NCBI GenBank assembly: GCA_040755995.1
Contig: JBFMAF010000009.1
Coordinates: forward strand, 13,531 to 77,530
DNA length: 64,000 nucleotides
Direction: 5' to 3'
From: Acidobacteriota bacterium
GTDB lineage: Bacteria; Acidobacteriota; CAIWXX01
The notes beneath the pieces were generated by a model that worked only from the letters and a program-made list of their open reading frames with translations, searched no databases and was not told the DNA's origin. A program made the position numbers and the translations under genes. Positions 45,483 through 63,350 of this stretch are shown piece by piece; position 1 is the first letter of the stretch; every line of letters begins with the position of its first letter.

Positions 45483-47471
45483 TCAAGGCCTTTCCGCAAT
45501 CGTCCGCTGGACGACGCCCGCATCGCTGAAGCGGTCTCCGCCGCCCCTCAGCAGAACCGCGCCGCCCGGATATTCGCTTCTCTCAGGCAGCGCGGTAGCC
45601 GGCTCGCAGAGGGCCAGGGCGAGCAGACGACCGCCTACCTCGATCATGAGCTTGCGGTCCAGTAGGGAATGAGCTGCCGCTTCGACCTCGGCCCTACTAT
45701 GACCGCGCGCCACCATCTGGTTCAGAAGCCTCCTCCATCCCACCGCAGCGTCACAAGCGAGGTGGATCTCGCGCTCGACCCCCTCCAACACGAACGACGA
45801 CGCCACTGCCACCGGACGCGTGTCGCGGATCCGGACGGCCGAGTCAGTAACGGTCATGATGAGGCAAGGAGCGCTCTCAGACCAGAATGCGATCTTCCAC
45901 TGTGCCGCGGCCTTGCTGGCGGCCAGTATGCCCGGGCGCGTGAGCAGCGTCTCGAAACGGGGATCAATTGCACGTTCCTCGTCCTCAAAGAAGCACACCA
46001 GACTTGCAAGGGCGTCGGGGCTGATGGGGTAGATGTAAGAGAAGAGCTCTGCCGGCTGCAGCTTCAGACCGAACTCTTGGGGACGCCCGTGGTACTGGCT
46101 GTAGCGATCGAGCCGCACACGAGCAAACGCCCACGGCGGCTGCAGGTGGCTGAGAAGCGGGAGCATCCGCGCCATCTCCCAATACCACTCATCGGCCTCG
46201 CCGGGGAAGTCACACATGATGTACCAACCCACGTAGACTCCGTATTGCCGGCACCACTTCAGGAACTGAACATTCTGCCAGGACTTGCAGCCCTTGTTCA
46301 TGTGCGCAAGGACCTTGTCGCTCAGACTTTCGATCCCACACCAGACCCAGGTCAACCCCGCATCCCGCATCGTCCTCACCTGCTCGCGGCTCAGGTTCGA
46401 CATGATCTGGTAGTAGATGCGGTACGGCGAACGCTTGCGCGCCAGATCCGGGAACAGCGTTCGGAAATAGCGCATCTCGAGGGAGTTGTCGGCGGCCAAA
46501 AACCGGGTCACACCGTGTCGATGATAGAGCGAATCAAGATCGCGCACCACCTGAGACGCGAGCTTGCTCCGAAAACGCCTGCCGCAGCCGTTCAGACTGC
46601 AGTACACGCATCCGCTCTTCTCCCCCCACCAGCAACCGCGGGATGTCTCGATGGGCAGAGACACCGCGATCTTGTCGCGGAAGGATGACTCCTTCAGTGT
46701 CCGGAAGTAGTCGTCGTAGTCGGGCACAGGCAGATCATCGAGAGACTCCACCGTCGCGCGCGGCGCGCCATCGGCCGGCCCGCGCGGATAACCGATGCGG
46801 CGATGCACCGGCGCGAATACGCCTTCTGGAAGCATCTCCGGCGCCACCTCGGTCCCCTTCTCCCGAATGGCCCGGACGAGCGGCGTGATCAGAGCGTCTG
46901 CTTCTCCGGAAACCACATAGTCAACCCAAGGAAAGAACGAGTGTGTGCTGCGGCCCATGATGGTCTCGCAGTTGGCACCTCCCATGACCGTGACGACATC
47001 CGGGGAAAACTCGCGCACGCGCTTCAACAGCGCAATTGACGACAGGTGCTGCATGTAGGTCGTTCCGCACCCGACCATGAAAGGCTTCCGCTCCAGAATA
47101 CGCCCGGCGAGATCATCCACAAACCGGCCCGCCTTCTCACGGACCGAGAGCATTATGTCCTTCAACTCACCGGCGTCGCAGCCGCGATACATGCGGTTGC
47201 GATCGATCAGCCGCCGGATGAAACGGTCGTGGTCGGATTCGAATCCTGGGAAGACGAGGTGGGAGAATGTCCAATCACCCAGAGCGTCTTGCGGGCGCGT
47301 CCCTGTGATGAGCATGTGACGGTGCAGCCCGATCTCACGCGCGAACAAGAGATCGGCATAGACAGTCTCCACGGCCCAGCCGTCGCGGATCAACACCGCC
47401 TGAAGCAGCCCCAGCGCGACCGACGGGCGCTCGATCGGCGTATAGGGCATGTTCACAAGGCATATGTCCAT
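45483..47471 (-). CDS. B12-dependent radical SAM RiPP maturase (TIGR03975-like C-methyltransferase) 3
   Basis: LVNMPY..PSVALGLL, MGGANCE, SGEAD, ETSRGCWWGEKSGCVYC (CX7CX2C), HLQPP..RLDRYS. Confidence 0.9.
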   Translation of the reverse strand: MDICLVNMPYTPIERPSVALGLLQAVLIRDGWAVETVYADLLFAREIGLHRHMLITGTRPQDALGDWTFSHLVFPGFESDHDRFIRRLIDRNRMYRGCDAGELKDIMLSVREKAGRFVDDLAGRILERKPFMVGCGTTYMQHLSSIALLKRVREFSPDVVTVMGGANCETIMGRSTHSFFPWVDYVVSGEADALITPLVRAIREKGTEVAPEMLPEGVFAPVHRRIGYPRGPADGAPRATVESLDDLPVPDYDDYFRTLKESSFRDKIAVSLPIETSRGCWWGEKSGCVYCSLNGCGRRFRSKLASQVVRDLDSLYHRHGVTRFLAADNSLEMRYFRTLFPDLARKRSPYRIYYQIMSNLSREQVRTMRDAGLTWVWCGIESLSDKVLAHMNKGCKSWQNVQFLKWCRQYGVYVGWYIMCDFPGEADEWYWEMARMLPLLSHLQPPWAFARVRLDRYSQYHGRPQEFGLKLQPAELFSYIYPISPDALASLVCFFEDEERAIDPRFETLLTRPGILAASKAAAQWKIAFWSESAPCLIMTVTDSAVRIRDTRPVAVASSFVLEGVEREIHLACDAAVGWRRLLNQMVARGHSRAEVEAAAHSLLDRKLMIEVGGRLLALALCEPATALPERSEYPGGAVLLRGGGDRFSDAGVVQRTIAERP

Positions 47472-47472
47472 T

Positions 47473-49467
47473 CTACGCACCTGATCCTGTGTGGCGGTCC
47501 CTTCCATCGAGCCGCGCTCGTGCGGCCTCCGATACCAGCCCTCCACCGGGGTAGTCGCTCAAGCCCGGCATCTCTGCGCACGGTTCACGGACGGCGAGCG
47601 AGATCAGATGCCCATCCGAAGAGAGCAGCAACTTGCGGTCGACGAGGTCCCGTGCGGCGCGCTCGACTTCCGATTTCGCGAACCCCCGCTCAGCGAGGGC
47701 CCGCTGGACGTTCTCTCCTGAGGGTGCATCGTCGCAGGCAAGGTAGAGGCTGCGCGACAGCCCGGTAAGCTCGAACTCCGGCTGCGAGGCCGCCGGACGT
47801 GTGTCCCGGATCCTGATGCGCGAGCGTGTGACGGTCATCGACAGGACGGGCCGCATGGCCGAGTAGAACCGCCGCGTCCAGTCGTCCACGGCCCGCCGCA
47901 CGGCCCGGATGCCCGGCCTTCTCATCAGGGGGCTGAAGAGCGGGTTGCGCGCCCGCGCGGGGTCCTCGAAGAAGTAGACCTGATTCTGGAGGTCTTCGCG
48001 ACTCAGAGGGTAGATGTATGCGTAGAGTCTCGCCGGCATCAACCTCAGGCCGTACTGCTTGGCTCGAAAATGGTAGTCACTGTAGCGATCGAACCGGACG
48101 CGGGTGACCTCAGCCGGCGGCTGCAGATGCGAGAGCAGCGGCAGATCACGGGCCAATTCCACGTACCAGCCGTCGTCCTCGCCCGGCAGGTCGCACATCA
48201 AGTTCCAGCCCACGTAGATACCGTGTTGCCGGCACCACTTGAGAAGCTGCACATTCTGCCTGGCAGTCACACCTTTGTTCATTAGCTTCAGTGCCCGCTC
48301 ATGAAGATGTTCGATGCCGGCCCAGACCCAGGTGAGGCCCGCATCGCGCATCAGCCCGACCTGCCGCTTGCTCAGGTTGGGCCTGACATCGAAGAAAAGT
48401 CGGACAGGCATGCGCCGGCGCGCCAGCTCGGGCAGTAGTGAACGGAAGAAATCGAGGTTCATGACATTGTCGACGGTCTGGATACGATCCGCCTGATAGC
48501 GCTCGAGCAGTGTGTCGATTTCTCTCAGAACCTGGCCGGCAGGTTTGGAGCGAAAGCGCTTACTCTGCGGCAGGATCCCACAGAATGTGCACGATCGCTT
48601 CTGTCCCCACCAGCAACCGCGCGAAGTCTCCAGCGGAAGCGCTGGAAGGATCATGCGCCGCAGCCATGCCGGCAGGTCGTTCAGCGTGTCGAAGTAGTCG
48701 TGAAAGTCCGGCACCGGGAGGGACTGGAGCGACCAGTACACGGCGCGCGGCGCGTCATCGCCGCCGCTCACGGAGGCGCGGGGATATCCGAGAGTGCGAT
48801 GAATCGGGGCGAACACGCCGTCGGCCAGGCCGTCGCCATACGCCTCGCGGCCATTCTGCAGAATCGCGCGCACGAGCGGAGCGATCAGGCCGTCGGCCTC
48901 GCCGGAGACGACGAAGTCGACCCACGGAGACGACTTGTGCGTGGTGCGGCCCATCACGGTCTCGCAGTTCGCTCCGCCCATCAACGTCACCACATCCGGC
49001 GCCAGCTTCCGAATGCGTTTGAGCAGGGCAAGCGAGGGCACATGTTGATTGAAGGACGACGTGCAACCCACTATGCGCGGTCTGCGCTCGAGAACGCGAG
49101 TCGCAAGGCGATCCACGAACTCGGCGGCGGCGCCGCGCACCGCGAAGACTGCCTCCTTGAACCGGTCCGGTTCACAGCCCTCAGGCAGCCGGTTTCGCCG
49201 GATGACATGATCGAGATACTCGTCGTGATCGGGGGCGAAGTCCGGGAATGCGATGTGGGCGAATGTCCAATCACGGAGCGCGTCGGATGACATGGTCTTG
49301 ATGACGAGCCGGTATGGACGTATCCCGATCGCCTCCAGGAAGAGCAGGTTCGCGTACACGCTCGCGACCGAGAATCCGTCGCGTTCGAGAATCGCCTGCA
49401 GAAGGCCCAGGGCCATCGAAGGCTGGATCGGTGGCGCGTACGGCATGTTGACGAAGCACACGTCCAT
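47473..49467 (-). CDS. B12-dependent radical SAM RiPP maturase (TIGR03975-like C-methyltransferase) 2
   Basis: FVNMPY..PSMALGLL, MGGANCE, ETSRGCWWGQKRSCTFC (CX7CX2C), HLQPP..RFDRYS. Confidence 0.9.
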   Translation of the reverse strand: MDVCFVNMPYAPPIQPSMALGLLQAILERDGFSVASVYANLLFLEAIGIRPYRLVIKTMSSDALRDWTFAHIAFPDFAPDHDEYLDHVIRRNRLPEGCEPDRFKEAVFAVRGAAAEFVDRLATRVLERRPRIVGCTSSFNQHVPSLALLKRIRKLAPDVVTLMGGANCETVMGRTTHKSSPWVDFVVSGEADGLIAPLVRAILQNGREAYGDGLADGVFAPIHRTLGYPRASVSGGDDAPRAVYWSLQSLPVPDFHDYFDTLNDLPAWLRRMILPALPLETSRGCWWGQKRSCTFCGILPQSKRFRSKPAGQVLREIDTLLERYQADRIQTVDNVMNLDFFRSLLPELARRRMPVRLFFDVRPNLSKRQVGLMRDAGLTWVWAGIEHLHERALKLMNKGVTARQNVQLLKWCRQHGIYVGWNLMCDLPGEDDGWYVELARDLPLLSHLQPPAEVTRVRFDRYSDYHFRAKQYGLRLMPARLYAYIYPLSREDLQNQVYFFEDPARARNPLFSPLMRRPGIRAVRRAVDDWTRRFYSAMRPVLSMTVTRSRIRIRDTRPAASQPEFELTGLSRSLYLACDDAPSGENVQRALAERGFAKSEVERAARDLVDRKLLLSSDGHLISLAVREPCAEMPGLSDYPGGGLVSEAARARLDGRDRHTGSGA

Positions 49468-49503
49468 GCTCGCCACCGCCGCCCTACATCGGCACTGGCC
49501 GGG

Positions 49504-51483
49504 TCAGGTCAGCCATGCCAGGAGCTCGCCGCCGGGGTAGTCGATCTTCTTGGGCAGCTCGGGGAGCGGCTCTTCGACGGCGAGCGCGAGCAGCCGCCCG
49601 TCGAGCTCGACCATCAGCTTCTGCTCCAACAAGCGCTCAACGGCTGCCTCAACCTCGTCCTTGTCATACCCCTGCTTCTCCAGAAAGGTCTTCAGCGTGG
49701 CCTTGCGGCACGCTTCGTCGCACCGGAGGTAAATCTCGCGCTCGATCCCGTGGAGGGTGAAGGTGGAGCTCACGGCGACCGGACGCGTGTCACGGATCCG
49801 TATTTCGGAGTCAGACTGCGACATCGCGAGGACAGGGAGGTTGTTGGACCAGAACGCTTTCTTCCACCAGCCCATCTCGCCGGCGGCCGCTCTCATACCG
49901 GGGCGGGTGAACAACGACGAGACCAGTGGATGCAGAGTGCGCGCCTCGTCCTCGAAGAAATACGTGAACCCGCGCATCTGTTCTTCGTCGAGCGGGTAGA
50001 CGTATGGCGCGAGCTCCGACGGGCGCAGCTCCAGGCCGTATTCCTTGGCCTTATCGTGGTAGTGGCTGAAGCGGTCCAGGCGCAGTCGAACGAAGCCGCG
50101 CGGCGGCTGCAGATGCGTGAGCAGCGGGAGGAGCTCGGCCATCTCGCCGTACCACTCGTCTTCCTCACCCGGGAAATCGCACATCACGTTCCAGGCGACG
50201 AAGATGCCATACTGGCGGCACCATTTCACGAACTGAACATTCTGGTACGCTTTGCATCCCTTGTTGATCAGCTTCAGCAGCTTGCTGTGCAGGCTCTCGA
50301 CGCCACACCAGATCCAGGTCACGCCCGCCTCACGCATGAGCCTGACCTGATCCTTCCTCAGGTTCGACATGAGCTCGTAGTAGAGTCGATAGGGCTTCTG
50401 CGCGCGCACAAGTTCTGGGAAGAGCGTGTCGAACCAACGCATGTCGATCGAGTTGTCGCAGGCATAGAAACGATGAATGCCATAGCGCTCATAAAGCGTG
50501 TCGAGCTCTCGGATCACCCTAGCCCCGGGCTTGCTCCGAAACCGCTTGCCGCACCCGTTCAGGCTGCAGAAGGTGCAGCCGTTCGTCCTGCCCTGGCCCC
50601 ACCAGCAGCCGCGGGAGGTCTCGACCGGCACGGACGGAATCACGTTCTTCTTGAGCTCAACCGAGGCATTGAGAGTCCGGAAGTAGTCGTCGTAGTTCGG
50701 GACGGGAAGACCGTCGAGCGTCTGCGACGTTGCGCGAGGAGCGCCGTCCGGCCCGCCAGACAGGTCCCGAGGATAGCCGGCCGACCTGTGCACTGGCGCA
50801 TACACGCCCTCGGCCAGCGCCGAGGCCGGAACATCGCGGCCGTGTTCCCTGATGCAGCGAACCAGGGACGTGATCAGCCCGTCGCCCTCGCCCGCTATCA
50901 CATAGTCCACCCAGGGGAACAGCCTGTGGGTCGCGCGGCCCATGACGGTTTCGCAGTTGGCGCCGCCGATCATGTTTATCAGCTCGGGCGCGCGCTCCTT
51001 GAGGCGCCGGAACAGCGCGAGAGACGACACGTGCTGGACCAACGTTGATGTACAGCCGACCACCATCGGCCTCTTCTCGAGGATGCGTTCGGTCATCTCA
51101 TCGATGAAGGGGGTCGCTGCTTCGCGCGCCTGCCACAGGATCTCCCGGAACTCCTGGGGGTCGCAATTGATATAAAGCGTGTTGCGCTCGATCAAGCGCG
51201 CGACATAGAGATCGTCATCCGGCTTGAAATCCGGGAAGGCGATGTGCGCGAACGTCCAGTCGCCCAGGGCGTCCGGCGCCCGGGTATCGATGATGAGTTT
51301 GTACCGGCGCAGACCAAGCTTCTCGGCGAAAAGGAGATCGGCACATACCGTCGCAGTCCTGAGCCCGTCGCGTTCGAGCACCGCGTGCAAGAGACCCAAC
51401 GCGGCCGATGGCCTGACAATCCCCGTGTACGGCATGTTGACCAGGCAGACATCCGTTGCGTTGTCGCTCGAATAACGATGCAT
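49504..51483 (-). CDS. B12-dependent radical SAM RiPP maturase (TIGR03975-like C-methyltransferase) 1
   Basis: LVNMPY..PSAALGLL, IGGANCE, ETSRGCWWGQGRTNGCTFC (CX9CX2C), HLQPP..RLDRFS. Confidence 0.9.
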   Translation of the reverse strand: MHRYSSDNATDVCLVNMPYTGIVRPSAALGLLHAVLERDGLRTATVCADLLFAEKLGLRRYKLIIDTRAPDALGDWTFAHIAFPDFKPDDDLYVARLIERNTLYINCDPQEFREILWQAREAATPFIDEMTERILEKRPMVVGCTSTLVQHVSSLALFRRLKERAPELINMIGGANCETVMGRATHRLFPWVDYVIAGEGDGLITSLVRCIREHGRDVPASALAEGVYAPVHRSAGYPRDLSGGPDGAPRATSQTLDGLPVPNYDDYFRTLNASVELKKNVIPSVPVETSRGCWWGQGRTNGCTFCSLNGCGKRFRSKPGARVIRELDTLYERYGIHRFYACDNSIDMRWFDTLFPELVRAQKPYRLYYELMSNLRKDQVRLMREAGVTWIWCGVESLHSKLLKLINKGCKAYQNVQFVKWCRQYGIFVAWNVMCDFPGEEDEWYGEMAELLPLLTHLQPPRGFVRLRLDRFSHYHDKAKEYGLELRPSELAPYVYPLDEEQMRGFTYFFEDEARTLHPLVSSLFTRPGMRAAAGEMGWWKKAFWSNNLPVLAMSQSDSEIRIRDTRPVAVSSTFTLHGIEREIYLRCDEACRKATLKTFLEKQGYDKDEVEAAVERLLEQKLMVELDGRLLALAVEEPLPELPKKIDYPGGELLAWLT

Positions 51484-51577
51484 TCGCCTCTTCCCGTCCA
51501 CCACGGTCCGCGTGCGGGTAGCGTGACTCGGCTATCATCTTCTCAGATGTGGTGAGAAAAGAAAAGCTGGGTCTCGC

Positions 51578-51701: not shown

Positions 51702-51989
51702 ATGCGGTCACAAGTTCACAAGGACCTGAAGACGCAGATCCAGAAGAAGGTCGCCACGAGCGCTCAATTCCGCGAGGCCCTGTTGAAGGATCCCAAGGGC
51801 ACCATCGGGAAAGAGTGGGGAATCAAGGTTCGCCCGGACATCAACATCGTCGTGCACGAGAACACCGCGAACACGGTCCACTTCATACTTCCCGACGCCA
51901 AGGCCGAGCTCTCTGAACGCGAACTGGAAGCGGTGGCGGGTGGTCGCGTGGGCGCATGGAGCTGTGCCTGCGGTCCCAGCATCGGATAG
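51702..51989 (+). CDS. NHLP-leader RiPP precursor; predicted core RVGAWSCACGPSIG
   Basis: AAGGAGG RBS; FREALLKDPK..IVVHENTANTVHFILP..ELSERELEAVAGG double-glycine site; lies beside the NHLP export genes. Confidence 0.95.
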   Translation: MRSQVHKDLKTQIQKKVATSAQFREALLKDPKGTIGKEWGIKVRPDINIVVHENTANTVHFILPDAKAELSERELEAVAGGRVGAWSCACGPSIG

Positions 51990-51996
51990 GTGAGCT

Positions 51997-52041
51997 CATC
52001 CCCGCGCGGGGATGGTAGGCGCAAGCCCCGGTTGTTGGGGC
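51997..52041 (+). terminator. stem-loops directly after the precursor stop (mRNA stabiliser/attenuator candidate)
   Basis: Perfect 18-bp palindrome CATCCCCGCGCGGGGATG (51997-52014), then GCCCCGG-TTG-TTGGGGC; no U-tract. Confidence 0.45.
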
Positions 52042-52168
52042 ACGCCGGAGATCTGGAGCGTTGCCGGGGGATACGTGTGTCCAACCGATGTCTCCTGTCC
52101 ATGAGGGCATCGCAATCCGCCGCTGACGCGCCCGGTCCATTGACTTTCACCAGCGGAGCGGCCGGCAC

Positions 52169-54853
52169 TTGAGCAGCTCATCTCGGTACCATGCCGAATG
52201 CCTGCTCCTGCATGCGGGCGTGGCCACGATCGCAACTGGGCTGCCCTCGATCTGCCGGTACCTCAGAAATGCGGGGGTCGCCGCTGAAATACTGCGGATC
52301 GCGCCCTCCGTGGTCGAGACTCTTGCGGACGACATCGCGCGTTTCACGAATCTCAGACTGATCGGCATCTCGATGCACTGGCACCCGCAGGTGCCGATCA
52401 GCATCAAGCTCGCGGAGCTTCTTCGAGCCCTGCCGGGTTCGCGCCATGCCGCGATCGTAATCGGCGGCATGACCGCGAGCTACTTCGCCGAGGAGCTGAT
52501 CCGCCTGCCCTTCGTCGACTTCGTGATCAAAGGCGACGGTGAGCTGCCGATGCTGCTCCTGTTTCGATCACTGTGCGGCTCCGTCGTGCCTCTCTCATCG
52601 GTGCCTAATCTCTACTTCAAGCGGAACGGCGAGGTGGTTCGGAGTCGCGAGACCTACTGCATAGATGAAGAGACGTTGGCATCTCTGGAGCGGCAGGTCA
52701 TCGACGATGGCGAGTGGTTTCCTCAGACAAGATCAGTTCTGAGCGTCGGCAGAGGTTGTGACTATGATTGTATCGCTTGCGGAGGAAACCGGCGTGGGCT
52801 TCCAAGGTGGGGCAATAGAATCGCTGCCATGCGAAGGGACCCGGGCTCTATAAGAGTCTCTATTGAGAAGCTGTTGAGCCAGGATGCCGGGCGGCTCTTT
52901 CTGCTGAACGACTACGACGGCCGATTCGAGATGCTGGGCACATGCCTGCAGGAATTCGACCTGTCGGCCTTCAAGACCCTGGCCGTCGATGCGTGGGGAC
53001 TGCCGCGGTTCGAGAATCTGCAGAGGGCGTTGGCAGGCACCAGGCCTGGCGGCGATCTCGTCGTGACCCTGGAATTGAGCCCGGAGGCGGGCAACGAAGA
53101 GACCCGAGCCAGGGTCAGATCATGTTCCTACTCCAACGCGGACCTGACTGAGCTCATGGATCGGGTGTTCTCGCACTACCGGAACATCCGCATCGTGCTC
53201 TGCTTCACATACTTCCTGCCTTTCTCGGACAAGTACAACCTGGAAACCCGCAGCTTCATCCGCTCGCTGACAACGACCTATCTCCAGCAGATCCTCGAGA
53301 ACAGGCTCCAGATCCAGTTCTGGCCCCTGTCCACTGATCCGGGCTCGTCGATCCAGCAGGACATGGTTGAGGGCCTCAGGCACGACGTACATGCGCTGGC
53401 TGACTATCTGGGCAAGATGCTGGCGATGCGCTCGACCGGCGGCAACTTGCTTAGACATTGGCCGGCGGAAATGGAGCCCGGGGAGATCGACTACCTCTGC
53501 CGCTTCTTCACCTACGAGAACGTTCTGCGGCTCCTTTATCCCGTGCTGTATCTCAACCTGGTCCAGCTCTTCGACGAGTTCAGCGGATATGACCAGTTCG
53601 TAAGGAGCTCGTTCGAACCCTTCTATGACATCCATCTGAGAAACTCATCCTCATCGGCCATGCACGCTCTGCATGTGTCGCTGGATTCATCGAGCATCTT
53701 CGGCTTCGCCTTCTCGGGAGACGAAGCGCTGCCCAAGCTCCCTCTGGTTCTCGTCTGGCTCAGGTTCCTCGAACGAGGATTGCGGAAGCACGCTGGAGAG
53801 TCTCTCCCGGCGCGCGCCAGCCGCAGGTCACAAGCTTGCCTGTGTCCCGATCTGGTCAGCCCGCTCTCTACCAAGGGCGATGATTTCGCCTCCTTCTCGG
53901 GCGCCGAGAACGTGTCAATGGAGTGGACCGATCTGCACTCTTATGTGCTCGAACTGCTCGACCTCATCGCGCGCCGTGAGGCATTTCGTCTGGGACAGGC
54001 CGGTCGCAAGAAACCGTTGTTCCTCGACTTCCTTCTGTACAACGACCGGAAGGTCGACGCCATCATCGAGCGCGGGCTGTTCCGTTGCGAGCTTCTCCCC
54101 GCCGCCAATGTTCTCTGCGAGATCATTCCGATACGCCGGGCGCATGTGATCATCCCGCCGCTCACGAGCCACGAGAACCTTCGATTGCTCGGTGCGAGGC
54201 TCTTCGAGAAGCTGATCTGCGGAGCCGACTACCGAGACGGATCGGCGAGCTGGCAGAGGGAATTGAGAGCGGAGCTCTCTGCGGAGGGAGACCTCAGGGA
54301 AGTCGTGGAGGGCCGTGTGGAGGAGCTCTGGCGGACGGTTCTGCGAGACGAACAGAGCGACCTCGGCAGAGTTCTCACCGATCTGATCATCTCAAGCCAC
54401 GTTCCGAGCAACCAGATCCTCGCCCGGATGGGTATCTCACAGGACGACGAGGCCCTTCGTGCTGCGGCGACCTCCGGATCGAGCACCCTCAGGCTTCGGT
54501 TGCGTGATCTGTACGGAGTTTTCGGAGATCGCTGTGACATTCGCCTCGCTGCCTTCTACCTGAATCACACGAAGTCTACCTGCCGGTTTCGAGAGGTCGT
54601 TCGGCCGGGCTCGGAGGAGGTCGCCATCCTGACCACGATCTACTATCCTGATCCATGCGGACACGATGGAGCGTTCGTGTTCTCTGCGGGGCTGGACCCG
54701 ATCGAGCTGGAAGCACTGCGGCTCTGCGATGGGACCCACACAATGAACGAGATCCTCAGCAGACTGGACGAGAGGTTCCCTGAGAGCCGCCTCAGCGGGC
54801 CCCGGCTTGGCGACATGATGATTTCGTTCTACAGCAGGCAGCTCGTGTACTAG
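52169..54853 (+). CDS. large B12-binding radical SAM protein with C-terminal PqqD/RRE-like domain
   Basis: LIGISMHW..IVIGGMTASYF..VDFVIKGDGE B12 region; GRGCDYDCIAC (CX3CX2C); C-terminal LRLCDGTHTMNEILSRL; TTG start uncertain. Confidence 0.8.
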   Translation: MSSSSRYHAECLLLHAGVATIATGLPSICRYLRNAGVAAEILRIAPSVVETLADDIARFTNLRLIGISMHWHPQVPISIKLAELLRALPGSRHAAIVIGGMTASYFAEELIRLPFVDFVIKGDGELPMLLLFRSLCGSVVPLSSVPNLYFKRNGEVVRSRETYCIDEETLASLERQVIDDGEWFPQTRSVLSVGRGCDYDCIACGGNRRGLPRWGNRIAAMRRDPGSIRVSIEKLLSQDAGRLFLLNDYDGRFEMLGTCLQEFDLSAFKTLAVDAWGLPRFENLQRALAGTRPGGDLVVTLELSPEAGNEETRARVRSCSYSNADLTELMDRVFSHYRNIRIVLCFTYFLPFSDKYNLETRSFIRSLTTTYLQQILENRLQIQFWPLSTDPGSSIQQDMVEGLRHDVHALADYLGKMLAMRSTGGNLLRHWPAEMEPGEIDYLCRFFTYENVLRLLYPVLYLNLVQLFDEFSGYDQFVRSSFEPFYDIHLRNSSSSAMHALHVSLDSSSIFGFAFSGDEALPKLPLVLVWLRFLERGLRKHAGESLPARASRRSQACLCPDLVSPLSTKGDDFASFSGAENVSMEWTDLHSYVLELLDLIARREAFRLGQAGRKKPLFLDFLLYNDRKVDAIIERGLFRCELLPAANVLCEIIPIRRAHVIIPPLTSHENLRLLGARLFEKLICGADYRDGSASWQRELRAELSAEGDLREVVEGRVEELWRTVLRDEQSDLGRVLTDLIISSHVPSNQILARMGISQDDEALRAAATSGSSTLRLRLRDLYGVFGDRCDIRLAAFYLNHTKSTCRFREVVRPGSEEVAILTTIYYPDPCGHDGAFVFSAGLDPIELEALRLCDGTHTMNEILSRLDERFPESRLSGPRLGDMMISFYSRQLVY

Positions 54854-54934
54854 AGGCCCGGGCATGCGCCAGATCCACATGTGGTCCGAGAGTGAGATGC
54901 GCGAGGCAATGGAGGGTCTTCGCCGTTTCCGCCG

Positions 54935-54943
54935 TGGTATACT
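54935..54943 (+). promoter_or_regulatory. extended -10 element upstream of the export genes
   Basis: TG-g-TATACT about 40 nt upstream of the RBS-backed GTG at 54984. Confidence 0.4.
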
Positions 54944-54983
54944 GGGACCCGATGTCAATGCGCTGGCCGTGAGAGGAGACAAG

Positions 54984-56552
54984 GTGTCCTCCGCCCTTAC
55001 GCTGGATCACAGGCATGTTAGGACAGTGTGCCTGCTCTGGGCCCTGACGTTCACGGCGCAGCTCTGGGGCCAGTCGCAGACAGGGCTTTCTCTGCAAGAG
55101 GCGGTACGGATCACGATCGAACGCCAGCCCGAGATCCTGGCTCAGAAGCAGCTGGTGGAGTCCGCACGCGGTTCGCTCGTGGCCGCCGGCGGCCAGTTCG
55201 ACTCGATGCTCCAGGCATACCTCAGTGTTGAGCACGAAGACTCGCCGCTCACGCGCGAGATACAGAACGAGCTGCAGCTGTCAAGTCTCAAGACCGACAC
55301 TGCCTCATATGGCATCGGGGTCGAGAAGCAGTTTCGCACCGGGCTGACGCTTAACCCGACCATCTCGTTCCAGAGAATCGAGGACAACTCGACGAATGTG
55401 ACCGCACCCAACTACGGTACGGCCAACCTGCAGATCACGCAGCCGCTGATGAGAGGCTTCGGCAGGGACGACGTGGCGGCAGCCGAACGATCCGCTGCGG
55501 CCGATTACCGGGCGGCCGTCGATACACTGCACCATACGATGGCCACCGATGCAGTGAACGCGGTGGTGGCCTATTGGGACTATGTCGGATATCAGCAGGT
55601 GTTGGCCGCGCGAAAGGAGACCGAGGAGCTCGCTCACAACCTGCTGGATCAGACCAAGGCGCTGATCGAGGCCGACCAGCGCCCGGCGTCTGAAATCAAC
55701 AAGGTCACTGCCAACCTGGCCTCCGCCACCGCCCAGCGAATCTCTGCCGAGCAGGATCTCTACGAGGCGAAGCAGAATCTCGGTCTTGCCATCGGCCTGA
55801 ATTGGGAAGAGATCGAGGCGATGAGGGAGCCTTCGGACGACTTCCCGGAGGTGGATGAGAACGATCTGCCATCTCTGTCGTCGATCGGGAGCTTCGTGCA
55901 GACTGCGTTGGTCGAACGTGGCGATCTGGCCGCAGCCAGGGAGACCCGCGAGTCGGCGCGTATTCTGTCGGTGGGGGCGGTCAAGGCGAGCCGGCCGCAG
56001 CTGGATCTGGGCGTGGGGCTGGGATTCGAGGGCATTGTCGAGGGCAAGGAGCCAAGCCATTTCCTGACCGCCTTCACGGACAACGTGCCCGGCCCCAGCC
56101 TGAATGCGTCTCTGACTTTCGGATGGCCGTTCGGCAACAGATCGGCGGTCGGACTCGTGGAACAGAACGAGGCCGAGCACCGACAAGCCATTATCGCTGC
56201 TGACGATCTGGCGAGAAGAATCGCCTCGTCTGTGGCCGCGGCCCTGTCGAGCGTGAGACAGAGAGGGTTGCAGCTGAAGAAGGCCGAAGAAGCCGCGGCG
56301 GCTTATCGAGTGGCAGTAAGCAACGAAACCCAGATACACCAGGCGGGGCTGTCCACGACGCTCGAGGTAATTCAGACCGAGGATCTGCTCTCGTCGGCGC
56401 TCATTGACCTGGTATCGGCCAGGCACGACTACGCCGTGGCCGTGGCTCTGCTTCGCTATCAGACTGGTACGCTGATGAGGTTCGACAGCTCAGGAGCGGT
56501 GACGGCTATCGAGCTGATGAGCCTCCCGTCGATTGAGGCCCCGCCCGAATGA
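54984..56552 (+). CDS. TolC family outer-membrane efflux protein
   Basis: Signal-like N-terminus, LSLQEAVRITIERQP, ITQPLMRGFG, AGLSTTLEVIQTE; AGGAG RBS. Confidence 0.88.
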   Translation: MSSALTLDHRHVRTVCLLWALTFTAQLWGQSQTGLSLQEAVRITIERQPEILAQKQLVESARGSLVAAGGQFDSMLQAYLSVEHEDSPLTREIQNELQLSSLKTDTASYGIGVEKQFRTGLTLNPTISFQRIEDNSTNVTAPNYGTANLQITQPLMRGFGRDDVAAAERSAAADYRAAVDTLHHTMATDAVNAVVAYWDYVGYQQVLAARKETEELAHNLLDQTKALIEADQRPASEINKVTANLASATAQRISAEQDLYEAKQNLGLAIGLNWEEIEAMREPSDDFPEVDENDLPSLSSIGSFVQTALVERGDLAAARETRESARILSVGAVKASRPQLDLGVGLGFEGIVEGKEPSHFLTAFTDNVPGPSLNASLTFGWPFGNRSAVGLVEQNEAEHRQAIIAADDLARRIASSVAAALSSVRQRGLQLKKAEEAAAAYRVAVSNETQIHQAGLSTTLEVIQTEDLLSSALIDLVSARHDYAVAVALLRYQTGTLMRFDSSGAVTAIELMSLPSIEAPPE

Positions 56553-56790: not shown

Positions 56791-58041
56791 ATGAAAGATC
56801 GTCTGTTTCGGAAAGTGTCGCTGGAACGACTGTCCTCGCCCGAACAGCTCGACCAGCTCATGCAGATCACGAGTCCCAGGGACTGGATCGTGCTGGTAGG
56901 CCTGGGCGCCCTGCTCCTCACATCGCTCCTCTGGGGTGCCCTCGGGACGATCAGGACCGATGTGCAGGGTCAGGCATTCCTGATCAAGCGCGGCGGCGTC
57001 TACCGAGTCGTCAGTTTTGGTTCAGGAGAGGTGACCAAGATCGACGTAGACGTCGGGGCGCCTGTGAAGGCCGGCCAGGTGGTCGCCTGGATCGCACAAC
57101 CCGCTCTTGCCGATCAGATTCGAGACGCCTACGAGCAGGTGTCGCAGAGTGAGGAAGACCTTCAATTCCTGACGGCATTCTACGATCGTGCCACGAAGCT
57201 GGAGACCGTATCCTTTCGCCAGCAGAAGGCGAACCTCGACGACCAGATCAAGCAGAACAACGATCGTCTCACGTGGCTCAACGAGCTGCTGGCCACTCAG
57301 AAGGCGCTCTGGGAGAAAGGGTTGGTCACAAAGCAGACCTACATGTCTACCGTGGACCAGATCAACAGCACTCGGCAGCAGATCCAGGGCAGCGAGGAGA
57401 AGCTCGACGAGATGAGGGTCCAGGTCAACAGTCTGCTGAAACAGAGAGACGAGGGCCTGTTCGATGCCGAGGTGAAGGTGCGGGAGGCCCGGCTGAAGCT
57501 CGACGCATTGACGGATCAGAGCGATCTGCAGACCAAGGTCACATGCCCGTACGAGGGCCGCGTCGTCGATGTCAGGGTCCAGGCACATGAGATGGTTTCC
57601 GAAGGCGCCGCGATCGTCAACGTCGAGCTCACGGGTGAGGAATTGATGGCAGTCGCATTCCTCTCCGCTTTTGACGGCAAGAAGGTAACGTCGGGCATGG
57701 AGGTCCGGCTTTCGCCGTCGATCGTCAAGCAGGAAGAGTACGGGTACATGCTCGGACGGGTCACGTCCGTGTCTGGGTTTCCGGCGACCTCGGATTCGCT
57801 TCTCTCGCTGCTCGGCAACGCCGACCTTGTGAAGCAGATCATGTCTCCGGAACCGCCGATTCAGATCTTCGTGGAGCTCTCGAGGAACCTTCACACTCCT
57901 AGTGGCTACGAGTGGTCTTCACGCCGGGGCCCGCCGATCAAGTTCACCAGCGGGACGGTCTGCCAGGTCGGCATCACCACCAGCCAGGACCCGCCCTACC
58001 GGCTCGTAGTACCGTATCTCAAGAAGACGCTGGGTGTATGA
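56791..58041 (+). CDS. NHLP system secretion protein (HlyD family)
   Basis: LFRKVSLERLSSPEQLDQLM, GKKVTSGMEV..PS.VKQEEYG, SGYEWSS. Confidence 0.93.
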   Translation: MKDRLFRKVSLERLSSPEQLDQLMQITSPRDWIVLVGLGALLLTSLLWGALGTIRTDVQGQAFLIKRGGVYRVVSFGSGEVTKIDVDVGAPVKAGQVVAWIAQPALADQIRDAYEQVSQSEEDLQFLTAFYDRATKLETVSFRQQKANLDDQIKQNNDRLTWLNELLATQKALWEKGLVTKQTYMSTVDQINSTRQQIQGSEEKLDEMRVQVNSLLKQRDEGLFDAEVKVREARLKLDALTDQSDLQTKVTCPYEGRVVDVRVQAHEMVSEGAAIVNVELTGEELMAVAFLSAFDGKKVTSGMEVRLSPSIVKQEEYGYMLGRVTSVSGFPATSDSLLSLLGNADLVKQIMSPEPPIQIFVELSRNLHTPSGYEWSSRRGPPIKFTSGTVCQVGITTSQDPPYRLVVPYLKKTLGV

Positions 58042-58146: not shown

Positions 58147-60342
58147 GTGAGCATCGCTGGACGACTCCGGGACTTGCTAGCAGGCTCGATGCGCACAAGG
58201 CGCGTGAAGACACCGACGGTTCTGCAGATGGAGGTGGTCGAATGCGGCGCCGCGGCGCTCGCCAGCGTGCTCGGCTACCACGGCCGGGTGGTGCCGCTGG
58301 AGGAGCTCCGGGTCGAGTGCGGGGTCTCGCGTGACGGCAGCAAGGCCAATAACATGCTGAGGGCCGCACGGAGCTACGGCATGATCGCGAAGGGTTTTCG
58401 CAAGGAGCCTGCGGAGCTGCGGGAGCTCTCCCTGCCCATGATCGTGTTCTGGAACTTCAATCATTTCGTGGTGGTCGAGGGATGGGGAAAGGGCCTGGTC
58501 TACATCAACGACCCTGCCTGCGGGCCGAAGACTGTCAGCGAGGATGAGTTCGATGAGTCGTTCACGGGGGTGGCGCTGACCTTCGAACCGGGCCCCGACT
58601 TCACGAAGGGCGGCGTCAGACGGTCGCTCTACAGGGCACTGGCCAGCCGCCTTCCCGGCTCCGAAACGGCTCTCGCCTATATCGTCCTGGCGGGTCTGAT
58701 GCTCGTCATTCCGGGCATCGTCATCCCGACGTTCACCAAAGTGTTCGTGGACGACTACCTGGTCGCGGGGATGGATTCATGGATCAAGCCGCTACTCCTG
58801 GCCATGGGCCTCACGGCGGTCATGCGAGGCGTGCTCACCTGGCTCCAGCAGCGTTTCCTGCTCCGCCTGCAGACGCGCATGACATTGAGCTCCTCCAGCA
58901 AGTTCCTCTGGCACGTGCTGCACCTGCCAATCGAGTTCTTCTCGCAGAGGTTCGGAGGTGAGATCGGATCGCGCGTCGCTATCAATGACCGCATAGGGCA
59001 GCTGCTTTCGGGCGATCTCGCCACCTCCGTGCTCAACCTCGTGACCCTGGTCTTCTACGCGGCCCTGATGTTCAGGTATGACCGGGTGCTGACCCTGGTC
59101 GGGATTCTCGTCTGCCTCCTGAACATCGAAGGCCTGAGGCTCGTCTCGCGCAAGCGCACGGATCTCAACCAGAGGTACCTGCAAGAGAGCGGCAAGCTCC
59201 TGGGAACCGGCATGAGGGGGCTGCAGATGATCGAGTCGCTGAAGGCCTGTGGCTCCGAATCGGACCTCTTCTCGAGATGGGCCGGCTATCAGGCCAAGGC
59301 CATGAATGCTCAACAACAGATGGGCCTGTATACCCTAATACTCTCAGCGCTGCCTTCGCTGCTGTCTTCCCTCAACACTGTCGCCATCTTGGGGATCGGC
59401 GGACTGCGGATCATGGACGGGCACCTCAGCATGGGCATGCTCGTCGCTTTCCAGAGCCTCATGTCGAGCTTCACCGACCCCGTGAACAAACTGGTCAACC
59501 TCGGCGGCACTCTACAGGAAGCCGAAGGCGACATGAACCGGTTGGAGGACGTGCTGCGGTGCGATGTGGAGAAGTCGATTACGGGCGCGGAGAGTGCATC
59601 GGGTTCGTCGCAAGCTGCGGGGACACTGGCCGGTTCCCTGGAGCTGAGAAATGTGACGTTCGGCTACTCGCGCCTCGATCCACCCCTGATCGCCGATTTC
59701 AGTCTCGTCCTGAAGCCCGGTGATCGGGTGGCTCTTGTCGGGGCCACGGGAAGCGGGAAGTCGACCATATCCAGGCTGGCCTCGGGCCTGTATCAGCCGT
59801 GGCAGGGAACGGTGTTGCTGGATGGGATGCCGCGTGATCAGATCCCTCGGGACCTCATAACCAATTCGGTCGCGATGGTCGATCAGGACATCTTCATGTT
59901 CGAAGGCTCCGTCCGTGACAACCTGACGCTGTGGGATACGACCGTGTCTGAGGCGGACCTGATCAGGGCCGCAAAGGACGCCTCTATTCATGAGGACATC
60001 GCCGCAAGACAGGGCGGCTATGATTGCCGGGTCGCCGAGGCGGGCAGGAATTTCAGCGGAGGTCAGCGCCAGCGCATGGAAATAGCCAGGGCGCTGGTCG
60101 GGAACCCATCGGTTTTGGTTCTCGACGAAGCTACAAGCGCCCTTGACACCAGGACCGAGGCGACAATCGACGACAACCTGCGCCGGCGCGGTTGCACCTG
60201 CCTCATCGTGGCACATCGGTTGAGCACGATCAGGGATTGCGATGAGATCATCGTGCTGGACCGGGGAACCGTCGTCCAGCGCGGCACGCACGATGAGCTT
60301 GTCAAGGTCGAGGGCCCATACGCCGAGTTGATAGGACAATGA
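58147..60342 (+). CDS. NHLP export ABC transporter, C39 peptidase/permease/ATPase
   Basis: TPTVLQMEVVECGAA, WNFNHFVV, INDP; GATGSGKS, FSGGQRQR, LDEATS. Confidence 0.95.
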   Translation: MSIAGRLRDLLAGSMRTRRVKTPTVLQMEVVECGAAALASVLGYHGRVVPLEELRVECGVSRDGSKANNMLRAARSYGMIAKGFRKEPAELRELSLPMIVFWNFNHFVVVEGWGKGLVYINDPACGPKTVSEDEFDESFTGVALTFEPGPDFTKGGVRRSLYRALASRLPGSETALAYIVLAGLMLVIPGIVIPTFTKVFVDDYLVAGMDSWIKPLLLAMGLTAVMRGVLTWLQQRFLLRLQTRMTLSSSSKFLWHVLHLPIEFFSQRFGGEIGSRVAINDRIGQLLSGDLATSVLNLVTLVFYAALMFRYDRVLTLVGILVCLLNIEGLRLVSRKRTDLNQRYLQESGKLLGTGMRGLQMIESLKACGSESDLFSRWAGYQAKAMNAQQQMGLYTLILSALPSLLSSLNTVAILGIGGLRIMDGHLSMGMLVAFQSLMSSFTDPVNKLVNLGGTLQEAEGDMNRLEDVLRCDVEKSITGAESASGSSQAAGTLAGSLELRNVTFGYSRLDPPLIADFSLVLKPGDRVALVGATGSGKSTISRLASGLYQPWQGTVLLDGMPRDQIPRDLITNSVAMVDQDIFMFEGSVRDNLTLWDTTVSEADLIRAAKDASIHEDIAARQGGYDCRVAEAGRNFSGGQRQRMEIARALVGNPSVLVLDEATSALDTRTEATIDDNLRRRGCTCLIVAHRLSTIRDCDEIIVLDRGTVVQRGTHDELVKVEGPYAELIGQ

Positions 60343-60440: not shown

Positions 60441-63350
60441 GTGGATTCGAAGATGCAGTCGGTCTTCCGCGAGGAGGGATCGACCTCTACGATCGGCGGC
60501 AACGAGCCGTTCTTGCTCGATGGTCCGGCCAAGGTCTGGTTCGTGCAATCTGGAACAGTGGATGTGTTCGCTGTGAGACTGGACGCGGCCGAGACAGCGA
60601 GTCCTCGAAGGCACGTGTTCCGCGTCGAGGCTGGAGGGATCCTCATCGGTGTACACATGGGCGATGCACAGCCCGGCCTCCTCGCGGTTGGATTCCCCGG
60701 GACTGAGGTCTCCGAGCTCTCCGCCACCAGATTTTTTCAACTTGCCGAAGACTCTCAGTACGCTCCAGAGCTCGCCTGCCTGTTGGACGGGTGGGTTTGC
60801 AGGTTCTGGTCTGGAGCTCATACCGGGCTCGCTCCAAGAAGATTCAAGCCCATGACCGCCGGCACGGTACTGGAGCTCCGGGGTGGCGAGGCCGCCCTGT
60901 GCACCGGCGCGGTGTTGTGGGCTGTGCAATCCGAGGGCAGCTCCAGTTTCGCCTGGTGGGAGGAGCTACCCGCCGCTGAGGAGAAGATCTACTTTCCCGT
61001 CCCCACCGGCGCCTGGCTAACGTCGCTCGGTGAGAGCAAACTCACCGTCACGGACACGCTGGCGGCGCTCGCAAGCGGGTCTTGCATGGCCGGGCTCGAT
61101 CGGTTTCACCGCATGGCCGTGGACGCGGTGTCGCTCAATATCGAACGCTCGGAACAGATGCTTGCCGACGGGCAGCTCAAGGCGGCCACCGCCGACCAGC
61201 TGTCCCTTCACGGTGCGCTCATGCGACTGGGGAGTGTGCTCGAGCCGCGAGGCGAGCACCCGGTTTTCGCCGAAACCGAGATCGATCCGCTGGTAGCAGC
61301 ATGCCGCGCCGTGGGAGGTCTCGTGAATATCGGCGTCGTGACGCCGCCCAGTTGGAAATCCAAGCGCCGCGGCCCTGACCCTCTGGATGAGATCGCCCGG
61401 GCATCTCGTTTCCGCGTCCGGCGAGTCGCGCTTCGCGACGACTGGTGGCGACGCGACAATGGGCCGTTGCTCGCTTACGTGCAGGAAGGAGAGGATCGGA
61501 GGCGTCCCGTGGCGCTGCTGCCGCGCTCGCCACAGTCCTATGGCCTCTACGACCCGACAACCGGCCAGACCGAGATGGTGGGGACCGATCAGGCGGCTAC
61601 GATAGCCCCGTTCGCCTACGGTTTCACGGCTCCGTTCGCCGAACGCACGATTCGCCTTCCCGACGTGCTCAGGTTCGGTCTGGAGGGCAGCGGGAGCGAC
61701 CTGCGCACGCTCCTTCTCATGAGCATCCTCGTCGGGCTTCTCGGGCTCGTGACACCGCTGGCCACAGGACAGATCTTCAACAAGATCATACCCGGTGCGG
61801 AGCGCAGCGAGCATCTGCAGCTGATCCTGGTGCTCGTGGCGAGCTCGCTGGCCACTGGAGGTTTCCTCGTGGCGCGGAGCATCGCTCTGCTGCGGCTCGA
61901 AGGCAAGATGGACGCGAGACTCCAGGCGGCTGTCTGGGATCGACTGTTGAGCCTGCCGGCACCGTTCTTCCGCCGTTACTCGGCGGGCGATCTGGCCATG
62001 CGCGCGAACGCGTTCGGGTTCATCAGGCAGGTACTCACGGATGCCACCGTATCGTCGATCCTGGGCGGCGTATTCTCCGTGTTCAACATCCTCCTGTTGT
62101 TCTACTACAGCTGGCGGCTCACTCTGGTGGCGATAGGTCTCACCGTCGTCGCCATGATCGTGATGGGCGTTACCGGCCGCATGCAGATCCGATTTCAGAG
62201 GCAGCTTTTCGAACAGCAGGGACGGATCGGCGGCATGCTGCTGCAGTTCATCAGCGGGATCTCGAAGCTGAGAGTGGCCGGAGCCGAGAGGCGTGCGTTC
62301 GCGTGCTGGGGCAGGGAATTCGCCGCCCAGAAGACCATCTCCTACGCATCAGGACGCGTCGCCAACTCGCTCGTTGTGTTCAATTCCGTCCTCATGGTCT
62401 TGACTTGGTTGATCATCTTCTGGGTCATGTCGTCCTGGTCGGGCGCCCGAATGCGAACAGGGGATTTCGTCGCGTTCAACTCAGCCTTCGGGTCCTTTCT
62501 CGTCGCCGCGCTGGCGATGAGTGCATCGCTGGTTTCGGTCTTGAGCATCGTGCCGGTATTCGAGCGAGCGAGACCGATCATCGAGACAATGCCGGAGGTC
62601 GATCAGGCGAAATCACATCCAGGCGAGTTGAGCGGGGAGCTCGAGGTCAGCCATGTATCTTTCCGCTATACAGCGGATGGACCACTGATCCTCGATGACG
62701 TCGCCTTCCATGTGCGGCCGGGCGAGTTCGTGGCGCTGGTGGGCCCGTCGGGTTCGGGCAAGTCCACGATCTTCCGCCTGCTGCTCGGCTTCGAGGCTCC
62801 CGACTCCGGTTCAATCTACTACGACCACCAGGACATCTCGGGCCTCGATCTGAGCGCCCTGCGGCGCCAGATGGGTGTGGTGTTGCAGAGCGGCGAGCTC
62901 ATGACGGGGGATATCCTCACCAACATCACCGGCGCCTCGCTGCTGACCGAGGAAGATGCGTGGGAAGCGGCCCGTCTGGCCGGCATCGAGCAGGACATCC
63001 GCGAGATGCCGATGGGGATGCAGACGGTGGTGAGCGAGGGTGGCGGTGGACTCTCAGGCGGACAGCGACAGAGACTGCTGATAGCGAGGGCGGTAGTGAA
63101 CAAGCCGAGGATTCTGCTCTTCGACGAGGCCACCAGCGCCCTGGACAACCGGACGCAGGCTCTGGTGAGCGCGAGCCTGCTCGGCCTGCGCGCGAGCCGC
63201 ATCGTAATCGCCCATCGCCTCAGCACCGTCATGAAGGCCGACACGATCCACGTCATCGACGGCGGCCGCGTAGTCGAGAGCGGCAGCTACGACGAATTGA
63301 TGCGCCGCGACGGCCTCTTCGCGCAACTAGCCAGACGCCAGCTCACGTAG
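60441..63350 (+). CDS. NHLP export ABC transporter, permease/ATPase subunit
   Basis: PFLLD..VWFVQSGTVDVF, WWRRDNGPLL, GPSGSGKS, LSGGQRQR, FDEATSALD, FAQLARRQL. Confidence 0.95.
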   Translation: MDSKMQSVFREEGSTSTIGGNEPFLLDGPAKVWFVQSGTVDVFAVRLDAAETASPRRHVFRVEAGGILIGVHMGDAQPGLLAVGFPGTEVSELSATRFFQLAEDSQYAPELACLLDGWVCRFWSGAHTGLAPRRFKPMTAGTVLELRGGEAALCTGAVLWAVQSEGSSSFAWWEELPAAEEKIYFPVPTGAWLTSLGESKLTVTDTLAALASGSCMAGLDRFHRMAVDAVSLNIERSEQMLADGQLKAATADQLSLHGALMRLGSVLEPRGEHPVFAETEIDPLVAACRAVGGLVNIGVVTPPSWKSKRRGPDPLDEIARASRFRVRRVALRDDWWRRDNGPLLAYVQEGEDRRRPVALLPRSPQSYGLYDPTTGQTEMVGTDQAATIAPFAYGFTAPFAERTIRLPDVLRFGLEGSGSDLRTLLLMSILVGLLGLVTPLATGQIFNKIIPGAERSEHLQLILVLVASSLATGGFLVARSIALLRLEGKMDARLQAAVWDRLLSLPAPFFRRYSAGDLAMRANAFGFIRQVLTDATVSSILGGVFSVFNILLLFYYSWRLTLVAIGLTVVAMIVMGVTGRMQIRFQRQLFEQQGRIGGMLLQFISGISKLRVAGAERRAFACWGREFAAQKTISYASGRVANSLVVFNSVLMVLTWLIIFWVMSSWSGARMRTGDFVAFNSAFGSFLVAALAMSASLVSVLSIVPVFERARPIIETMPEVDQAKSHPGELSGELEVSHVSFRYTADGPLILDDVAFHVRPGEFVALVGPSGSGKSTIFRLLLGFEAPDSGSIYYDHQDISGLDLSALRRQMGVVLQSGELMTGDILTNITGASLLTEEDAWEAARLAGIEQDIREMPMGMQTVVSEGGGGLSGGQRQRLLIARAVVNKPRILLFDEATSALDNRTQALVSASLLGLRASRIVIAHRLSTVMKADTIHVIDGGRVVESGSYDELMRRDGLFAQLARRQLT

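Follow-up and report, generated by a model that had tools for sequence, protein, structure and literature searches.

We analysed a stretch of 64,000 nucleotides from an Acidobacteriota genome (assembly GCA_040755995.1, contig JBFMAF010000009.1, forward strand, positions 13,531 to 77,530), hereafter referred to as the window, and, within it, a gene for a cobalamin-binding radical S-adenosylmethionine (SAM) protein of 894 amino acids (aa). The gene belongs to a cluster for a peptide made by the ribosome and modified post-translationally (RiPP). As the original prediction for this locus had claimed, it comes first after a precursor gene; it is the first long open reading frame (ORF) 3' of that gene, which has an NHLP-type leader and lies 179 nt away, and it is followed by the genes of an export system (Table 1). 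Three genes of the TIGR03975 family and one radical SAM/SPASM gene are divergent from the precursor, 894-aa and export genes. Overall, the 894-aa enzyme probably modifies the small peptide encoded next to it, although no such peptide was recognised beside more distant relatives.

The 894-aa gene and its catalytic half

Judged from its sequence, the gene is an intact class B enzyme gene, and activity of its product is predicted. The N-terminal Rossmann domain carries the G-x-S, GG and GE motifs described for class B cobalamin domains (PMC9204698), and it is followed by a CX3CX2C motif (residues 197, 201 and 204; nt 52757-52780) and a partial TIM barrel. The motifs quoted in the original prediction (G66-I-S-M-H-W-H72, G99-G100, K121-G-D-G-E125, C197/C201/C204 and L852-C-D-G-T-H-T-M-N-E-I862) are indeed all present, and all 15 sequences of the alignment share the cysteines and the cobalamin motifs without change. 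Pfam recognises the B12-binding domain alone in the window protein, with no Radical_SAM match at E 0.1, and gives weak Radical_SAM matches for the homologues P0015-P0017. The protein had also been described as no paralogue of the three other cobalamin radical SAM enzymes nearby, which agrees with BLASTP E-values of 0.075-0.12 to the TIGR03975 trio, whose members are 51-57% identical among themselves.

The closest homologue, 65% identical, is found at locus L009 of genome G029, which belongs to the same family as the window genome and to a different genus; it starts with ATG at the position of the TTG codon of the window gene. Between the two copies, the ratio of non-synonymous to synonymous substitution rates (dN/dS) is about 0.25 overall, being 0.16 for residues 9-433, 0.31 for residues 434-805 and 0.43 for residues 806-894, while dS between the two clusters is near 0.9. 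Such purifying selection, together with the conserved cysteines and cobalamin motifs, argues that the gene is not degenerate. Degeneracy, which the original prediction had named as a reason to give it up, is thus countered by the intact ORF and the dN/dS value.

The N-terminal motifs had been likened to TIGR04190 (B12_SAM_Ta0216). The likeness stands, since TIGR04190 is the best NCBIfam model for the window protein (112 bits, residues 23-413, model positions 38-441 of 554), but membership is ruled out by a cut-off of 500 bits. Members of the protein's own family score 50-127 bits on this model, which is also the best one for 38 of 38 more distant relatives scanned, three of them above the cut-off. 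By its best model and its H-W cobalamin motif, the window protein thus falls into a broad TIGR04190-like clan. Membership of TIGR03975 was rejected as well, as the protein scores 22.8 bits against a cut-off of 281.85 and lies outside the TIGR03975 clade.

A word-based search found six other clusters, whose homologues are 33-65% identical across 98% or more of the length. An exhaustive search gave 2,062 hits, of which seven representatives, including the query, had E-values of at most 3.5e-112, the next being 2e-41. Both searches together, with L010, yield 12 full-length family sequences of 835-903 aa. These form their own clade inside the wider clan (FastTree support 0.96) in a tree of 41 sequences and 417 columns rooted with TIGR03975. 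Among 401 genomes of the window phylum, two had full matches to the profile of the C-terminal half, those of the window and G029; among 401 of the phylum to which G401 belongs, G401 alone had one. One distant and partial match was found on plasmids, and Sulfolobus acidocaldarius has a TIGR04190 match below the cut-off. As far as these comparisons go, the family is a rare, undescribed clade within the TIGR04190-like clan. No paper naming TIGR04190 was found in the literature searched, which covered few subscription journals and main texts only; among the matches listed, those for Ta0216, TIGR04340 or ACGX were unrelated, and the one for DUF483 with radical SAM concerned phages.

The full-length AlphaFold model (pLDDT 72, pTM 0.69) is closest to four methylases: TokK (Z 15.3, root-mean-square deviation (rmsd) 7.0, 492 residues aligned), TsrM (Z 14.8, rmsd 5.6, 387 aligned), MgmA (Z 14.6, rmsd 5.5, 357 aligned) and CysS (Z 14.4, rmsd 5.8, 473 aligned). 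AprD4 (Z 13.7) and OxsB (Z 13.5) come just below, and Foldseek matches to solved class B enzymes reach E-values down to 3e-11.

Table 1. Parts of the 894-aa protein and neighbouring genes, in window coordinates
Feature	Position	Strand	Basis
894-aa cobalamin-binding radical SAM protein	52169..54853	+	TTG start, ORF without internal stop
Cobalamin-binding Rossmann domain, residues 14-128	52208..52552	+	PF02310, E 2.5e-12; G66-x-S68-x-H70-W71-H72, G99-G100, G124-E125
Radical SAM partial TIM barrel, residues ~187-433	52727..53467	+	Fold matches TokK, TsrM, CysS, MgmA
Helical cap-like domain, residues ~434-615	53468..54013	+	AlphaFold model
Predicted first strand of split RRE-like winged helix, residues ~644-655, P644 invariant	54098..54133	+	Strand at model residues 217-222
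Putative inserted helical domain, residues ~670-802	54176..54574	+	Stand-alone 153-aa homologue in G359
Predicted rest of RRE-like fold	54620..54850	+	Strands 818-825, 836-842; helices 844-852, 859-869, 877-889
NHLP-leader RiPP precursor, 81-aa leader to GG and 14-aa core RVGAWSCACGPSIG	51702..51989	+	TIGR03793, 66 bits (cut-off 50.9)
TIGR03975 RiPP C-methyltransferase-type B12 radical SAM, copy 1	49504..51504	-	639 bits (cut-off 282)
TIGR03975, copy 2	47473..49476	-	641 bits
TIGR03975, copy 3	45483..47546	-	633 bits
Radical SAM/SPASM protein	43968..45416	-	TIGR04340 (ACGX system) 235 bits (cut-off 400), SbtM 181 bits (cut-off 350), both below cut-off
TolC-like outer membrane efflux protein	54864..56552	+	PF02321
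NHLP system secretion protein, HlyD-like	56791..58041	+	TIGR03794 over cut-off
NHLP export ABC transporter with C39 peptidase	58147..60342	+	TIGR03796 over cut-off
NHLP export ABC transporter, second subunit	60441..63350	+	TIGR03797 over cut-off

The C-terminal half and its RRE-like fold

Modelled alone, residues 434-894 gave a better prediction than the full-length protein (pLDDT 80, pTM 0.79). Besides helical parts, this model contains a winged helix of three strands and three helices, the fold of RiPP recognition elements (RREs). It matches MibB (Z 8.8, rmsd 2.4, 86 residues aligned), TbtB (Z 8.6, rmsd 2.6, 94 aligned), TbiB1 (Z 8.5, rmsd 2.6, 81 aligned), 6jx3_B (Z 8.4, rmsd 2.2, 82 aligned), TigE (Z 8.4, rmsd 2.3, 80 aligned) and PqqD (Z 7.6, rmsd 2.7, 92 aligned), as well as PKMT2 (Z 8.6) and NisB (Z 7.3). 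Over all winged-helix matches, 80-98 residues align at rmsd 2.2-3.0, with moderate Z-scores, the top seven of which are tied within 1 Z unit. Stand-alone RREs (84-94 aa) align nearly whole, with 81-92 residues matched from model residues 193-211 to 461.

Such ranges lead us to infer that the RRE-like winged helix is split, its first strand lying at about residues 644-655 and its two other strands and three helices at residues 818-889; this is a reading of alignment ranges on a predicted model and not of residue pairs. About 160 residues would separate the first strand from the second, owing to an insert of about 135 aa. The inserted domain gains independent support from a stand-alone 153-aa protein of genome G359, which matches residues 670-802 and no other part (hhalign probability 95.2%, E 2.8e-8, 132 columns). 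Neither Pfam, NCBIfam, PHROGs nor PDB sequences gave an assignment for the insert at cut-off. The G359 gene (G359:C27, L070:8973-9434) is located upstream of an ankyrin-like gene and pheS/pheT-like genes, as named from their sequences.

The original prediction had called the middle of the protein unassignable and its tail PqqD-like, and each claim survives in part. No family was found for the insert, but the rest of the middle is largely parsed by the model, and the segment at about 644-655 is predicted to join the fold of the tail. As for the tail, the model has an RRE-type fold (Z 7.3-8.8, discontinuous in sequence), but PqqD-type profiles stay below their cut-offs, and winged helices from outside RiPP pathways match equally well. 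TIGR03859 gives 15-18.6 bits against a cut-off of 46, its trace match covering residues 842-872 of the window protein, and Pfam PqqD picks up 1 of 13 family members (E 0.054). Structure-based RRE calling is described as having a high false-positive rate, related winged helices being common outside RiPP pathways (PMC12710340). Taken together, the helical domain and the winged helix loosely resemble NGO1945/DUF2063 (3dee; Z 7.9, rmsd 5.3, 195 aligned) and TglI (8hci_C; Z 7.8, rmsd 5.3, 200 aligned), the latter being a helical domain with a substrate-binding RRE (PMC10880893).

Other searches with this half were negative. Foldseek found no match to its model at E 0.001 in the PDB or among viral models, the ESM Atlas features gave no usable match for residues 435-894 (structure rows with TM of at most 0.40 by query), and no PDB sequence reached an E-value below 0.05 with the whole protein, its C-terminal half or the 153-aa homologue of the insert as query. 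Profile comparisons of the C-terminal half with three PqqD-like proteins (probability 7%) and with TIGR03975 tails (hhalign probability 2.7%) were not significant. Complex prediction of this half with the precursor scored 0.00 in two runs, which gives no answer, and was used neither for nor against binding. Among the best 8,000 candidates of 185-807 aa, forms of the C-terminal half were represented by the query member P0064 alone, on a 3.3-kb contig, with no stand-alone or otherwise fused form; among the best 8,000 longer candidates, there were four members already known.

Neighbouring genes and related loci

The window and L009 share the order of precursor, 894-aa gene, TolC, HlyD and two ABC transporter genes. 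The two precursor cores are identical in sequence, their genes differing by 4 synonymous and 0 non-synonymous changes, while the leader has about 20 non-synonymous ones. In G029 (L009 and L071, contig C53, about 105,000-132,000), a single NHLP precursor with a 14-residue core has nine radical SAM genes around it: five of TIGR03975, one SPASM gene, two unassigned genes and the 894-aa homologue. Orthologues of the four extra G029 genes (69-78% identity) are located on contig C40 of the window genome. A second NHLP precursor of G029, with a Cys/Pro-rich core, lies downstream of an apparently frameshifted SPASM-type gene (L075:1426-1734, minus strand).

The window genome has one TIGR03793 precursor and 12 TIGR03975 matches over the cut-off. 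On G000:C40, unassigned radical SAM genes (516 and 487 aa; L077:4853-8480 and L078:4320-8017) each stand beside a TIGR03975 gene; these two pairs have no adjacent precursor and may act in trans on that of the window. A second RiPP cluster (G000:C44:78760-98945) combines five tandem TIGR03975 genes, a 519-aa gene and an export system with a precursor that is Nif11-like, as labelled from its sequence, and has a Thr/Val/Glu-rich core.

Within the window, neither a promoter nor a terminator was matched in the intergenic region, and RNA folding there was not unusual. A 30-codon ORF between the precursor and the 894-aa gene (52012-52104, plus strand), with an AGG motif and a two-Cys tail, was set aside, being not kept at L009 and probably due to chance. 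We take PoyC (PoyB/PoyC type) to be a TIGR03975 member. The TIGR03975 copy at 49504-51504 has a CX9CX2C motif, and the other two have CX7CX2C, as described for PoyC (PMC11285071). The SPASM protein is closest to the models of the ACGX system and of SbtM, both below cut-off; for SbtM, thiooxazole formation at a Gly-Cys motif is described (PMC9204691). The core includes A-C-G-P and S-C, so that a thiooxazole or another Cys modification is plausible. Because of this relationship, the core Cys may be changed before the 894-aa enzyme acts, an order which we infer.

Several relatives of the 894-aa gene have other surroundings. At the loci without a recognised precursor (listed in the next section), its neighbours include DUF483, a 487-aa radical SAM protein, a DUF512-type radical SAM protein, a Memo-like protein and an aminotransferase. 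The 487-aa radical SAM protein occurs in all four genomes known to have the 894-aa family, which represent two independent genome lineages only; in phylum samples, it is present in 5 of 401 genomes and in 6 of 331. It is absent from G010, which also lacks the family, and present in eight sampled genomes without the family. Its gene stands 1.3 kb upstream at L011, and G401 has the two genes in that order with a contig break between them; it is about 10 kb away in G029, where it lies inside the NHLP cluster beside TIGR03975 genes, and on a separate contig in the window genome, and a weaker relative lies downstream at L059. Of seven further partner regions, one (L128) is a PqqD-containing radical SAM island and the other six are not, and L042 is such an island as well. 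Both islands are from Omnitrophota and combine PqqD proteins with five to eight radical SAM genes, the 487-aa family among them, and neither showed an identifiable precursor.

Memo-like proteins are encoded beside the family gene at L057:8515-9783 (minus strand) and L059:5039-6268 (plus strand), with an N-terminal extension that is weakly PqqD-like (E 0.099, L057). L057 (2887-4600) has a second copy of the family gene's initial codons about 1.7 kb upstream of the gene; a DUF512-type radical SAM gene, encoded on the opposite strand, is flanked by this duplication, which suggests a local rearrangement.

Proposed role and comparison with known systems

The reading we prefer, with a probability of about 0.45, that is, a little under even, is that the 894-aa protein is a precursor-tailoring radical C-methylase, an active class B enzyme that serves the adjacent NHLP precursor in this lineage. 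We are led to it by the gene order and identical core shared with L009, by the RiPP leader-binding domains among the matches of the C-terminal half, and by the methylases that are the four best matches of the full model. In such a scenario, the enzyme would bind base-off cobalamin and a [4Fe-4S] cluster as TokK and CysS do, while the split RRE-like domain, perhaps aided by the helical and inserted domains, would hold the leader. A 5'-deoxyadenosyl radical would take hydrogen from a single residue within the 14-aa core, and the methyl group would come from methylcobalamin, at a site out of reach of the TIGR03975 enzymes. The C39 transporter would then cleave after GG, and the TolC/HlyD system would export the product.

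Several observations weigh against this reading. The best match of the C-terminal half, though tied within 1 Z unit, is the winged helix of the non-RiPP protein Rv2067c (Z 9.3, rmsd 2.4, 89 aligned), and winged helices of PKMT and carbamoyltransferases are also among the matches. When the two clusters are compared, constraint on the protein is lowest over residues 806-894 (dN/dS about 0.43), and the protein as a whole is 65% identical to its L009 copy, while 12 other genes compared are 69-87% identical. The cluster already codes for three to five TIGR03975 methylases per 14 residues. The two NHLP loci are from one family and hence not independent. No precursor was recognised at five of the six other loci long enough to be counted, namely L010 and L011, both from Omnitrophota, and the 9-12 kb metagenome contigs L057, L058 and L059, the first two of them near-identical; L060 was too short, and the loci of P0003, P0004, P0007 and P0015-P0017 fall outside the count. 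In G401 and G402, the genomes of L010 and L011, there was no TIGR03793 match and no TIGR03975 match over the cut-off; both are metagenome-assembled genomes with unreported completeness. Consequently, where the original prediction expected homologues beside precursors and a precursor-binding enzyme, L009 with its identical core and the RRE-type fold speak for it, but the precursor-less loci and the equally good non-RiPP winged helices do not.

These loci also speak for a first alternative, which is less probable than the preferred reading, yet a serious rival to it. The substrate might be another protein, a lipid or a small molecule, handled together with the 487-aa radical SAM protein (and DUF483 in Omnitrophota); the winged helix would then serve protein contact or dimerisation, and the gene would have been swept into a radical-SAM-rich island. 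Of the three lineages whose gene context could be used, two show no precursor, and the NHLP subclade is nested among these in the tree; the partner is far more frequent in genomes with the family than in the background, and the winged helices of Rv2067c, PKMT and carbamoyltransferases match as well as RREs do. However, two genera have preserved the position between precursor and exporter at a dS near 0.9, the partner lies within the G029 NHLP cluster and in the seemingly peptide-directed islands at L128 and L042, and precursors may lie beyond the ends of short contigs.

Alternatively, the precursor might be the substrate of a reaction other than methylation, which we regard as unlikely. Cobalamin stacked over His70/His72, and not over a hydrophobic residue, would act as a radical or electron sink while the Trp/Cys-containing core is cross-linked, cyclised, desaturated or rearranged, perhaps with the rare 487-aa partner acting before or after. 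This idea starts from the motif G66-x-S68-x-H70-W71-H72. By published registers (OxsB G-x-S-x-N186, TsrM G-x-T-x-R69, TokK A-x-S-x-Y74-x-W76; PMC9204698), His would occupy both lower-axial positions of the window protein, H70 corresponding to OxsB Asn186, TsrM Arg69 and TokK Tyr74, and H72 to TokK Trp76, with W71 between them, in a register read from sequence and not from residue-level superposition. A review describes the lower corrin face as hydrophobic in radical methylases and polar in non-radical-methylating enzymes (PMC12931638), and the cluster has abundant capacity for methylation already. Keeping in mind that the W76H variant of TokK is still active (PMC9204698), a His-rich motif is no bar to methylation. 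Moreover, 14 of the 16 family rows of the alignment have H70, as do 119 of the 140 rows from elsewhere in the clan, and for W71 the counts are 16 of 16 and 134 of 140; since the motif is clan-wide, it says nothing special about the window gene. The best four folds are methylases, although AprD4 and OxsB come just below. Hence, the motif is a lead to unusual chemistry and no evidence of such chemistry, and the original suggestion of a reaction other than ordinary C-methylation, for which this motif is the only basis, is weakened.

It is tempting to go further and suppose that the window protein is the first RiPP-modifying TIGR04190-like member, with His-on cobalamin via the strand-3 loop, an insert-split RRE on the leader, a non-methylating reaction and a core shared by up to nine radical SAM enzymes; this combined scenario is less likely still. 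In the reviews consulted, the His-on mode is unreported for solved cobalamin radical SAM enzymes. Finally, a decaying or non-catalytic copy, of use to the other radical SAM enzymes only as their scaffold or as an adaptor that binds the leader, is very improbable: the missing Pfam Radical_SAM match and the strongest divergence among the cluster genes compared would fit it, but the CX3CX2C, GG, GE and barrel motifs are kept in 12 full-length sequences of 29-65% identity, the catalytic half is the most constrained, and P0015-P0017 still match Radical_SAM weakly.

The TIGR04190-like clan is large, with more than 2,000 representatives matched, and the window member has a short, expressible candidate substrate next door, which makes both the chemistry of the clan and the role of the His-Trp motif directly testable. 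Profile tools built for contiguous domains would overlook a discontinuous RRE, if it is real. The nine radical SAM genes per 14-residue core in G029 point to a densely modified small peptide.

Compared with known systems, the window protein shares with TIGR04190 its best model, the H-W cobalamin motif and CxxxCxxCGG, but the match stops at residue 413, and the protein, with 894 aa against 554 model positions, forms a separate clade and has an insert and an RRE-like tail. It differs from the TIGR03975 C-methyltransferases, besides its score, in the canonical CX3CX2C and in a tail not detectably related to theirs. The RREs of PqqD, TbiB1, lasso B1, MibB/NisB and TigE have the same three strands and three helices (Z 7.3-8.8), whereas the fold of the window protein is predicted to be discontinuous and falls below all PqqD sequence cut-offs; the succession of a helical domain and an RRE is reminiscent of the DUF2063/TglI partner proteins, as in TglI (PMC10880893). 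With TokK, CysS, TsrM, MgmA/QCMT and OxsB, it has in common the Rossmann cobalamin domain, partial TIM barrel and C-terminal cap (Z 13.5-15.3), while identity is 11-17%, and H-W-H at the putative lower-axial site and about 300 extra C-terminal residues set it apart. Likewise, the cluster resembles proteusin-type NHLP clusters in its NHLP leader, GG cleavage, TIGR03794/03796/03797 export and B12 radical SAM enzymes, although its core has only 14 residues. Overall, the models suggest that the 894-aa protein works in the manner of class B enzymes such as TokK and CysS, within an NHLP cluster of proteusin type, and that its predicted architecture is unusual.

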